This document shows positions 2,455-63,766 of a stretch of 64,000 nt of DNA, piece after piece. Source of the DNA: Eledone cirrhosa (Eukaryota); contig OZ024749.1 in NCBI GenBank assembly GCA_964016885.1, positions 40,114,001-40,178,000 of the forward strand, written 5' to 3'. Positions within the stretch are counted from its first letter, which is position 1, and each line of letters opens with the position of its first letter. Position numbers and translations under genes: made by a program. Under the pieces are notes generated by a model, which was not told where the DNA came from, ran no database searches, and saw only the letters and a program-made list of their open reading frames with translations.

Positions 2455-2710
<256 letters not shown>

Positions 2711-17785: not shown

Positions 17786-18280
<495 letters not shown>

Positions 18281-19146: not shown

Positions 19147-19198
19147 TTTTGTCTGATGAGGACGTACTGTTGTACATCCGAAATATGTATAATAAAAT
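19147..19198 (+). ncRNA. Type I hammerhead ribozyme
   Basis: CUGAUGA-GGACGUAC ugUU GUACAUCC-GAAA-UAUG-UA; stem II 7/8 paired; weak stems I and III. Confidence 0.7.
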
Positions 19199-19508: not shown

Positions 19509-19594
19509 AGTAAAAAATTGAACGGGAACAAAACAGAGAGGCAGTACGAACAAAGGTTTATTAGTTTCACGCTCTTGAGAGTGGGGTGGTGATA
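19509..19594 (-). mobile_element. (TA)n-embedded remnant carrying an HHR 3' half
   Basis: Reverse complement actctcaagagcgtGAAACTAATA then a tail; no CUGANGA. Confidence 0.4.
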
Positions 19595-19623
19595 CATATA
19601 TATTTATGTACAAATGTGTATAA

Positions 19624-19734
<111 letters not shown>

Positions 19735-19735
19735 A

Positions 19736-19793
<58 letters not shown>

Positions 19794-19804
19794 ATATATA
19801 CAAA

Positions 19805-19836
<32 letters not shown>

Positions 19837-19946
19837 AGTTGTAATAAAATGAAAACGAAATTTCATTTCTCACTCTTAGTACGGCACTTACTTAAATGTA
19901 AGTATGTATACGTACATACATATATGTATACAGACGTACAGTAGCA

Positions 19947-20032
<86 letters not shown>

Positions 20033-20179
20033 CAGGTACACATACATGTACGTATCAGTTTAGCGGACGCTTATTATAGCGCCCGCTTTGTTCGTTTGTA
20101 AACAAACTGAACAGCCTGAATTTATGCCGTACGGTGTTAAGGCAACCACGTCACCTTTTTGTTCAACACTGACACAGGA

Positions 20180-20222
20180 ACGATGTACTAGTTTCAAGCT
20201 TGTTAGCTATCATCAGCATCGT
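20180..20222 (-). ncRNA. Type I hammerhead ribozyme (family E, unit 1)
   Basis: ACGAUG-CUGAUGA-UAGCU aaca AGCUU-GAAA-CUAG-UA-CAUCGU: 6-bp stem I, palindromic ACUAGU stem III, GUA site. Confidence 0.88.
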
Positions 20223-20454
20223 ATACCCTTCTGCCAGATGGTTGAACGTTCGAAAGTATATACTTTCCTTATGAAAATTAACGGCTGAGCAGCCTAATTT
20301 GCATATCGAGTGAGTCCGGCCAGGCGTACCGAGAACGACAAGTTGTAATAAAATGAAAACGAAATTTCATTTCTCACTCTTAGTACGGCACTTACTTAAA
20401 TGTAAGTATGTATGTATACGTACATACATATATGTATACAGACGTACAGTAGCA

Positions 20455-20516
<62 letters not shown>

Positions 20517-20667
20517 CAGGTACACATACATATATGTACGTATCAGTTTAGCGGACGCTTATTATAGCGCCCGCTTTGTTCGTTTGTAAACAAACTGAAC
20601 AGCCTGAATTTATGCCGTACGGTGTTAAGGCAACCACGTCACCTTTTTGTTCAACACTGACACAGGA

Positions 20668-20710
20668 ACGATGTACTAGTTTCAAGCTTGTTAGCTATCC
20701 TCAGCATCGT
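20668..20710 (-). ncRNA. Type I hammerhead ribozyme (family E, unit 2)
   Basis: Identical to unit 1 except at the variable N7 position (CUGAGGA). Confidence 0.88.
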
Positions 20711-20889
20711 ATACCCTTCTGCCAGATGGTTGAACGTTCGAAAGTATATACTTTCCTTATGAAAATTAACGGCTGAGCAGCCTAATTTAGGCATAAATTC
20801 AGGCTGTTCAGTTTGTTTACAAACGAACAAAGCGGGCGCTATAATAAGCGTCCGCTAAACTGATACGTACATATATGTATGTGTACCTG

Positions 20890-20949
<60 letters not shown>

Positions 20950-21599
20950 TGCTACTGTACGTCTGTATACATATATGTATGTACGTATACATACATACTT
21001 ACATTTATATATATATATATATACATTTGTACATTATACATATATATATATATGTGAGCAGTTGTATATGTGTGTATATATATATGTGTGTGTAGAGAGA
21101 GAGAGAGAGGGGGGGAATAGAGAGGCAGAGATTAAATTCATCAAAACCCTTTGATTCATGTGATTAATTTATTGGAGGGGGGGGGGTTATTTTATAGATT
21201 ATTCTTTTTTTTCTCATATTTTCTATTTTTGTTGTTCTTTGTTCTATTTGTTTTTACTTTTTATTATTTATTTATCATAAAGTACCAGTAATGCCCTGGG
21301 TAGAAACAATTATTTATTTATCATAAATAAAATTTTAAAAAATAAATAAATAAAGAAAGAAACCATTGTTTATTTATCATAAATATCTATTTGTCTAATT
21401 TATTTTAATTTATTGTTAATATCCTTTTTTCGCTCCTCATTCTTGTTGTTGTTGTTGTTGTTGTTGAAGTGCTTAGGGTATGTGTGTGTCTATGTCTATA
21501 TGCATATATGTGTGTGTGTGTGTGTTTGTGTGAGAGAGTGAGGGTGTGTGTCTGTCTGTTTGTTTGAGAATCTTGTGTTTCTATAGTTATGCATAAATA

Positions 21600-40011: not shown

Positions 40012-40840
40012 CCGGTGGATTAGCAGTTTCGGTAGAGTGTCAGACACCATACTATGCAGCACAGAGTTACGGCCCTTTATGGTCTGAGTTCAAATCCCGC
40101 CGAGGTTTACTTTGCCTTTCATCCTTACGGGGTCGATAGAATAAAGTACCAGTCACGCACTGGGGTCGATTTAATCGCCTTTCTCCTGCCCCAAATTGCT
40201 GGCCTTGTGACTAATGTAGAAATCATTGGATTGGCAGTATGGGTAGAGTGTCAGACACAATACTATGCAGCACAGAGTTATGGCCCTTTATGGTCTGAGT
40301 TCAAATCCCGCCGAGGTTTACTTTGCCTTTCATCCTTACGGGGTCGATAGAATAAAGTACCAGTCACGCACTGGGGTCGATTTAATCGCCTTTCCCCTGC
40401 CCCAAATTGCTGGCCTTGTGACTAATGTAGAAATCATTGGATTGGCAGTATGGGTAGAGTGTCAGACACAATACTATGCAGCACAGAGTTACGGCCCTTT
40501 ATGGTCTGAGTTCAAATCCCGCCGAGGTTTACTTTGCCTTTCATCCTTACGGGGTCGATATAATAAAGTACCAGTCACGCACTGGGGTCGATTTAATCGC
40601 CTTTCCCCTGCCCCAAATTGCTGGCCTTGTGACTAATGTAGAAATCATTGGATTGGTAGTATGGGTAGAAGGTCGGACTCCATGCTTGCTTTGTAGCAAA
40701 GAGTTACGGCCCTTTATGGTCTGAGTTCAAATCCCGCCGAGGTTAACTTTGCCTTTCATCCCTACAGGGTCGATAAAATAGTACCAGTAATACACTGAGA
40801 TAATTGCTGGCCTTGTGCCAAAAGTAGAAACAATTATTAT
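40012..40840 (+). mobile_element. Head-to-tail SINE tetramer (211-bp period)
   Basis: Near-identical units; ORF starts 40054/40265/40476 show the period; flanked by a ~22-bp direct repeat. Confidence 0.9.
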
Positions 40841-57014: not shown

Positions 57015-57070
57015 TTATATATATTTCAGGGATATCATATTAACAATATGCTATTCCTTCCTCAGACAAA
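57015..57070 (-). ncRNA. Type I HHR (family J, left arm)
   Basis: CUGAGGA-AGGAAUAGCAUAU...AUAUGAUAUCCCU-GAAA-UAUA-UA. Confidence 0.7.
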
Positions 57071-63480: not shown

Positions 63481-63766
63481 TAATGTATAATTAACAATAC
63501 AATATAATTAATTACCTCATTACCACAGGTTTCCCGAATAAATGAATACGAAAAACGTCCTCATTCGTTCATCGGACAAGGCAATTATTGCCTTGTCTGA
63601 TGAACGAATGAGGACGTTTTTCGTATTCGTCTTATTCGGGAAACCTCTGGTAATGAGGTAATTATATTGTATTGTTTATTATACATTAAATTTAGCTCTG
63701 TAACTTACATAGAGCACTCTTCACTCCTATGACTTTTTCAATTTTCAACGGAAACTTCAATACTTA
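63481..63766 (+). mobile_element. Family K PLE-like element: ~105-bp-arm palindrome + tail in (TA)n
   Basis: Centre 63586 (ggcaat-t-attgcc), arms 63481-63688. Confidence 0.85.
63593..63656 (+). ncRNA. Type I hammerhead ribozyme (family K)
   Basis: UUGU-CUGAUGA-ACGAAUGAGGACG...CGUCUUAUUCGG-GAAA-CC ucu GG-UA-AUGA; the left-arm copy has CCGAUGA. Confidence 0.78.

Follow-up and report, generated by a model that had tools for sequence, protein, structure and literature searches.

The stretch of DNA considered here (the window) comprises 64,000 nt of the Eledone cirrhosa assembly GCA_964016885.1 (contig OZ024749.1, forward-strand positions 40,114,001 to 40,178,000), and at positions 19836-21007 it carries an insertion formed by one full unit, one nearly full unit and an inverted arm, whose parts are collected in Table 1. 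Positions within the unit are given as q, the numbering of the hammerhead strand, in which q1-510 is the reverse complement of window positions 19836-20345, the predicted cut falls after q160, the internal TA tract spans q318-395 and the 3' end is q510. An initial annotation, made from the letters alone, had described two near-identical monomers; these are indeed two non-coding units, but unit 2 lacks about 34 nt at its 5' end and the two differ further by two 4-nt indels and by the length of the TA tract (39 versus 27 repeats). The PLE-style inverted partial copy that it reported is present at 20790-21007 and is 99% identical to unit 2, and the lone family tail that it placed at 2582-2638 is real, though it is part of another subfamily, whose 3' end differs. 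No target duplication is discernible around the insertion, which is flanked by (TA)n on both sides. No ORF of at least 150 aa overlaps 19836-21007, and a Pfam scan of 15 of the 90 long reading frames of the window returned no relevant family.

Table 1. Components of the insertion at 19836-21007 and associated features, in window coordinates.
Feature	Position	Strand	Remark
Lone tail, different subfamily, within (TA)n	2582-2638	-	Sequence comparison
(TA)n target, left part	19590-19835	.	Right part about 21008-21050
Unit 1, full, 504 nt	19836-20339	-	3' end at 19836 is the fixed tailed family end, adjoining (TA)n
57-nt tail separating the two fixed 3' ends	19836-19892	-	Hairpins predicted at each border
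Internal (TA)39, unit 1	19951-20028	.	Not an insertion end
Hammerhead 1, type I	20180-20222	-	Predicted cut after 20186
Predicted 488-nt cleavage-to-cleavage monomer	20186-20673	-	Folding prediction
Octamer-to-TATA block, candidate internal promoter	20257-20305	-	Octamer 20304-20297, TATA 20262-20257; predicted start near 20232
Unit 2, 5'-truncated by about 34 nt (at about q41)	20340-20789	-	Octamer broken by inversion junction
Internal (TA)27, unit 2	20459-20512	.	Shorter than the tract in unit 1
Hammerhead 2, type I, private G at N7	20668-20710	-	Predicted cut after 20674
Inverted arm, 218 nt, q218-453	20790-21007	+	Head-to-head with unit 2; ends at the tail-less fixed end beside (TA)n

Both minus-strand hammerheads were confirmed at 20180-20222 and 20668-20710, the sole difference between them being N7 (T versus G); within the family this position is T or C, and G is found only in unit 2 of the window. 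A strict hammerhead scan of the window recovered 10 motifs, against a mean of 0.01 across 200 dinucleotide shuffles. Rfam returned no match at gathering level in the window and one sub-threshold HH9 match over unit 1 (19.3 bits for a cut-off of 52, E 0.15), and its miRNA matches in the window were rejected as TA-tract artefacts. From a structural point of view, hammerhead 1 is a type I motif with a 6-bp stem I, a 3-bp stem II resting on a U-U mismatch and a palindromic 6-nt helix III. Since this last helix is too short for a monomer and pairs as a palindrome (predicted duplex of -4.8 to -6.8 kcal/mol), the hammerhead is predicted to act as a dimer, and the weak helix III together with the U-U at the base of stem II predicts slow cleavage. 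A very short palindromic helix III is likewise typical of dimer-acting PLE hammerheads, which were predicted to need a second hammerhead (PMC4209133; Lunse et al. via PMC6765202), and axolotl HHR_Amex2 has the same U-U at the foot of helix II (PMC7229834). Stem II, on the other hand, is short here (3 bp, without G10.1-C11.1) but long in minimal PLE hammerheads (PMC4209133). For frog retrozyme dimers, 8 of 9 are reported as uncleaved in vitro (10.64898/2026.07.22.740005).

The 3.0-Gb genome assembly was searched for further copies. Exact matches number 24,157 for a 31-nt hammerhead pattern (control 0), 14,036 for a 20-mer of the family outside the hammerhead, 331 for the 3' end of the young subfamily plus TA (control 0) and 427 for the unit junction of this subfamily. 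Among the first 100 hammerhead matches listed, 45 have a same-strand hammerhead neighbour within 900 nt, 29 of the 31 same-strand spacings below 6 kb measure 420-538 nt, 38 of the 59 clusters hold a single hammerhead, and all 11 mixed-strand clusters are head-to-head. The family includes at least three subfamilies, with units of 452-600 nt (median 478, 47 units) in that of the window and of 420-595 nt (median 424, 25 units) in the others, so that the 488-nt spacing between cleavage sites, put forward from the window, is correct there and does not extend to the family, whose unit lengths vary from 420 to 600 nt. The junction stretches measure 46-53 nt in 93 of 94 cases and have a subfamily-specific sequence. 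The arrays are dispersed, simple unit repeats and, judged from this make-up, have no LTR/PBS/PPT structure. One case, a ~43-kb array (G000:C2:60568856-60611309), contains at least 62 hammerhead-bearing units (L284-L289) organised in higher-order repeats, which show that multimers also arise by local expansion.

Arrays at many loci with unique flanks thus support the existence of a non-coding, tandem, hammerhead-bearing family, as had been proposed, and the genome-wide count agrees with it: 24,157 motif matches, often in arrays of 420-540-nt non-coding units, indicate that neither misassembly nor the terminus of a coding element accounts for the tandem. The opposite reading, namely that the units are mere ends (pLTRs) of coding Penelope elements or that the tandem is an assembly artefact, could draw on the short contigs of independent reads, which cover the element at great depth while none bridges the junctions of the window, and on one same-strand spacing of 2.7 kb. 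However, the unique flanks of the many arrays argue against an artefact, the 2.7-kb spacing is due to a nested insertion into an unrelated element, and the unit is not the UTR of any sampled coding element, so this reading is largely refuted and appears highly improbable.

Besides these subfamilies, there is a young sister family with a 465-nt unit (L229-L253, e.g. G000:C3:267526329-267532512), present in numerous copies of 100% identity that form both tandem and inverted arrays, whose alignment with the window family is confined to the hammerhead, the tail hairpin and the block upstream. The stems of its hammerhead are compensated, the palindrome is that of the window family and the site is UC. 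The sister family lacks an internal TA tract (longest TA run 2) and lands in TA, and its copies end at two fixed sites, 69 nt apart. In titles and abstract openings of the literature on cephalopod hammerheads and retrozymes and on Penelope inverted insertions, the window family is not described, and repeat databases may hold it.

How well the ribozyme is maintained was assessed in an unbiased set, formed by 58 of 78 loci not selected by hammerhead, in which the hammerhead core is intact in 49 of 58 copies. Variants common to at least three of these 58 loci fall on 36 of 142 flank positions and on none of the 16 positions of core and palindrome (p 0.024), and variants common to at least two loci fall on 53 of 142 and 1 of 16, respectively (p 0.012). 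A shared-versus-singleton test of core conservation was not significant in the unbiased sets (p 0.10-0.14; smaller set p 0.42), the core-versus-flank comparison in the smaller unbiased set gave p 0.073, and the value of p 0.007 obtained with all 149 units is biased because these include hammerhead-selected loci. Stem I is 100% paired in 19 chosen variants, with one pair taking three forms (A-U, G-U and U-G), and since the variants are related sequences, these changes belong to one lineage. Hammerhead upkeep is most strongly indicated by the sister family, which keeps the core and the palindrome while its stems are different yet paired; as judged from these comparisons, the hammerhead is conserved across the subfamilies and the sister family.

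The copies also share the way in which they end. On the hammerhead strand the fixed end corresponds to the 3' terminus, as expected from target-primed copying of that strand, and it exists in two forms, one at q510, which includes the 57-nt tail, and the other at about q442-457, which is tail-less. In hand-scored sets not selected by tail, every two-armed insertion whose two outer ends were readable was taken, and all 23 (nine from among the best genome matches, window included, 11 loci picked for several hammerheads and three non-hammerhead-selected loci) pair one tailed with one tail-less arm. In a tail-selected set of 30 loci, a second tail is missing from all 18 scorable second arms, of which 15 terminate near q442-457 and the remaining three near q420, within the TA tract and at q280, respectively (L041 was unscored and a 20-nt stub in L050 was left out of the count). 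One-armed arrays end at either fixed site. The sequences of the copies document the copy number, the targeting of TA, the one tailed and one tail-less fixed 3' end and the scattered 5' ends, and the Penelope-type insertion anatomy proposed initially (fixed 3' end, tail, inverted 5'-truncated arm, scattered 5' ends and TA bias) holds at the level of sequence. The accompanying idea that the internal TA tract serves as an annealing site had to be abandoned, and with it this tract as a priming site: the arm ends lie downstream of it, by ~115 nt (tailed) or 50-60 nt (tail-less), a single one of the 18 second arms ends inside it, in other subfamilies it comprises few repeats (median 7), and the TA-targeting sister family lacks it.

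A few copies and flanks deserve separate mention. At L139:4400-6260, a copy lies outside TA, in a PLE coding region, with an apparent 8-nt target duplication and within a larger inverted rearrangement; at L141, the right end of the insertion repeats ~29 nt of the left flank in inverted orientation. In the window, a short non-TA segment after the TA tract (19510-19600) resembles the ends beside L070 and L079 and is probably the tail of another TA-targeting element.

Much of this anatomy is known from PLEs, whose insertions show 5' truncation, partial tandems, inverted 5'-truncated copies, often a tail at only one end and a bias for (TA)n (PMC8557442). At the mechanistic level, two internal RT start sites define the Penelope tail (PMC11167929), and the two ends of the family would likewise correspond to two internal start sites beside a stem-loop. 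The family departs from PLEs in having no ORF and a tail of ~57 nt instead of 30-40 nt (PMC8557442, PMC11167929). Moreover, it pairs a tailed with a tail-less arm strictly. In vitro, by contrast, the anole protein treated both strands alike, the same start sites being used on each, and hammerhead cleavage was dispensable for insertion (PMC11167929).

Coding PLEs are present in the same genome: there are 10,597 GIY-YIG candidates genome-wide, 150 of which were scored, several coding PLEs have RT and GIY-YIG motifs in a single frame (ORFs of up to 1,096 codons), and two sampled coding PLE families have the same tail/no-tail ends at TA. The window family has no RT plus GIY-YIG ORF between pLTRs and is therefore not an autonomous PLE. 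In a thin sampling of 50 of these 150 GIY-YIG loci (blastn, nhmmer) and follow-up loci, no UTR similarity to the unit was found, and the blastn and nhmmer matches in the 50 loci are nested insertions only; no pLTR matching the window family emerged from this thin sampling, as compared with PLE matches for 21 of 57 frog retrozyme families (10.64898/2026.07.22.740005). Two candidate autonomous partners were rejected, L139 since its copy is inserted into a Hydra-like element, and L129, whose weak tail match led to a second non-coding family. The arrays, documented here without a coding partner, are likely mobilised by a borrowed Penelope-type reverse transcriptase/endonuclease, and we infer a Penelope-type partner of the family.

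Which form of the RNA is copied can be approached through the 5' breakpoints. The 44 breakpoints scored in 44 loci are spread over the unit, none being at the cleavage site (q156-166), and 84 segments of these loci read through this site. Read-through without a pile-up of ends points to a circle or an uncut multimer as template, not to a cut linear monomer, which was consequently rejected; it is nevertheless important to stress that about one breakpoint would be expected at the cleavage site by chance, so that the argument lies in the missing pile-up and not in a depletion. The released 488-nt monomer that had been envisaged as the mobilised form is thereby narrowed, its cut linear state being discarded as template. 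The 488-nt circle is predicted to be 70% paired and, without the TA tract, has a folding energy of -146.9 versus -101.7 +/- 5.6 for 40 shuffles (z -8.1), partly on account of self-complementary TA-like flanks.

Comparison of units within and between arrays adds to this picture. The median difference is 0.67% among units of one array and 6.0% among units of different arrays; however, the closest counterpart of a unit in another array is no more distant (median 0.5%) than the units of its own array, so within-array identity is not discriminating and was dropped as proof of a circle. Among 37 arrays, 21 have no inherited-type difference and 4 have at least three. Array-wide private variants include four present in all units and one more present in 8 of 9 units, a single junction variant recurs at 7 junctions of one array, and the L148 array alternates as ABAB. 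As a whole, the data favour repeated copying of one template, and a circle as this template has, from the sequences, a little more in its favour than against it; it is the least secure step of the explanation developed below.

The same family and the same borrowed enzyme could instead use an uncut multimeric transcript, the hammerhead acting elsewhere (5' leader trimming, RNA turnover) or rarely. Read-through of the cleavage site fits this reading equally well, the main substrate of the anole PLE in vitro is uncut RNA (PMC11167929), and the weak helix III and the U-U at the base of stem II would make cleavage slow, as in the axolotl motif (PMC7229834). In addition, heterogeneous arrays exist, namely the 4 of 37 mentioned above and L148, and long arrays such as that of ~43 kb are available as possible sources. 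Yet 5' truncation would shrink arrays unless they were renewed, and young two-armed insertions reach 6-9 units; the array-wide private variants and the junction variant shared by 7 junctions, as well as a hammerhead core conserved over subfamilies and sister family, also count against an uncut multimer, which we regard as possible and decidedly less probable than the circle. Another scheme, put forward in 10.64898/2026.07.22.740005, is that monomers or short pieces insert Penelope-style and tandem arrays arise later by local, satellite-like duplication. The higher-order repeats of the ~43-kb array and the single-hammerhead clusters, which make up 38 of 59 among the first 100 matches listed, are in line with it. 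However, in near-identical young copies (L031, L034, L141 and L142) multi-unit arms flank single inversion junctions and each arm ends at its own fixed site, and later duplication fails to explain the supply of RNA spanning both the unit junction and the cleavage site, which makes it improbable. The head-to-head arms, the seamless unit junctions, the read-through of the cleavage site and the conservation of the hammerhead are themselves apparent in the genomic copies.

A further component concerns transcription. An octamer followed by a TATA-like box ahead of the hammerhead is common to the window family, the sister family and a third hammerhead repeat, and this block is absent upstream of hammerheads in the other sampled families, coding PLEs included. 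The same or a one-mismatch motif is found at -77 to -79, with TATA at about -30, in 4 of 7 distinct U6 upstream regions (15 loci), one of which has 12 identical bases in common with the element, while none of 6 distinct U2 upstream regions carries it; the octamer-TATA spacing is 43 nt in the element versus 47-49 nt in U6. The p values of the U6 comparison (0.01-0.05) are per comparison and uncorrected, and the chance figure of the promoter pattern, 0.06 per window, refers to a pattern defined after the data were seen. The candidate promoter ahead of tandem hammerheads recalls newt satellite 2 and schistosome repeats, with a small-RNA-type promoter ahead of the ribozyme and, as in newt satellite 2, a layout in which the upstream unit would drive the next one (PMC2220036, PMC6765202); unlike in newt satellite 2, the promoter of the family is proposed solely from its likeness to host U6 upstream DNA. 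That the unit contains a working internal promoter is, on this basis, about evenly balanced. Transcription by read-through, assumed initially, may instead start at this promoter, and simple Pol III read-through is made less likely by the runs of 5-6 T found in other subfamilies and in the sister family. The window copy is probably a poor source, since the inversion junction interrupts its upstream octamer and, in a read-through RNA, the 218-nt inverted arm would fold onto the monomer. As for the host genes, U6 (L254-L256) has the octamer-like motif only ~77 nt upstream, a TATA-like box lies near -35 of U2 (L269-L283), which lacks an octamer within 330 nt, and both genes form tandem clusters. 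In the third hammerhead repeat (L128:1150-1800, also L042, L099 and L174), the block lies ~93 nt upstream and helix III is longer.

When classified by its features, the window element belongs, as far as its sequence reveals, to the animal non-LTR retrozymes, and its Penelope footprints are unusually clear; the assignment stands as first proposed on account of type I hammerheads, tandem units, absence of coding and coexisting PLEs. As in metazoan non-LTR retrozymes (PMC7229834; 10.64898/2026.07.22.740005), the units are short, AT-rich, non-coding and tandem, each with one type I hammerhead, and there are thousands of copies, coexisting coding PLEs and a circle predicted to be highly paired; retrozyme circles are known in mussel, coral and axolotl (PMC7229834). 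The unit of 420-600 nt is above the range of 170-400 nt given in PMC7229834 and within that of 51-972 nt given in 10.64898/2026.07.22.740005, and the available text of these two sources does not describe paired tail/no-tail two-armed insertions or TA targeting for retrozymes. With the retrozyme class, the tail and the Penelope link already published, the element is not surprising as a kind.

Taken as a whole, the best explanation is a promoter-driven, self-cutting, circularised retrozyme copied by a Penelope-type enzyme into a two-armed insertion, a sequence of steps that we hold to be somewhat better founded than an even guess. RNA would likely be transcribed from a promoter within each unit; self-cleavage of the transcript through paired hammerheads is predicted to give unit-length RNA that would then be closed into a circle; and the borrowed Penelope-type RT/endonuclease would likely copy this RNA into TA microsatellites from two fixed internal sites. 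Each nicked target strand would prime one cDNA, one at the tailed site and the other ~57 nt upstream, each cDNA would run through a variable number of units, and both would be joined at their 5' ends. A more far-reaching and rather doubtful proposal is that of a self-sufficient RNA genome parasite, in which each unit would unite a hammerhead active as a dimer with a Penelope recognition site and a U6-type promoter acquired by capture, the circle of the parasite being copied simultaneously from both nicked strands by a two-subunit enzyme; each Penelope subunit would be held at a different start site, resulting in the strict tailed/tail-less back-to-back arrays. If true, this would account for the asymmetry of the Penelope tail and support rolling-circle retrotransposition at the scale of a whole genome. 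Retrozyme mobility and the circle as template are still treated as hypotheses in the available text of PMC7229834, 10.64898/2026.07.22.740005 and PMC11167929, and with ~24,000 hammerhead copies, young near-identical insertions, fixed ends and a sister family, the present system could serve to separate the circle from the multimer. The strict tailed/tail-less pairing is, in turn, a testable constraint on the Penelope mechanism.

Finally, the window contains other hammerheads. Those at 18085, 28490, 39086 (-) and 39203 (+) also have a 6-nt palindromic helix III and are 76-96% like hammerhead-bearing 3' regions in PLE loci, one such PLE family having a CxCx5C motif before GIY-YIG and being Hydra-like as defined in PMC8557442. 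Hammerheads of further families lie at 19153, at 57065 (-)/57237 (+) and at 63597, all of them arranged as head-to-head inversions. Positions 337-733 and 40016-40788 are occupied by a 209-211-nt repeat in tandem copies, which may be SINE-like.
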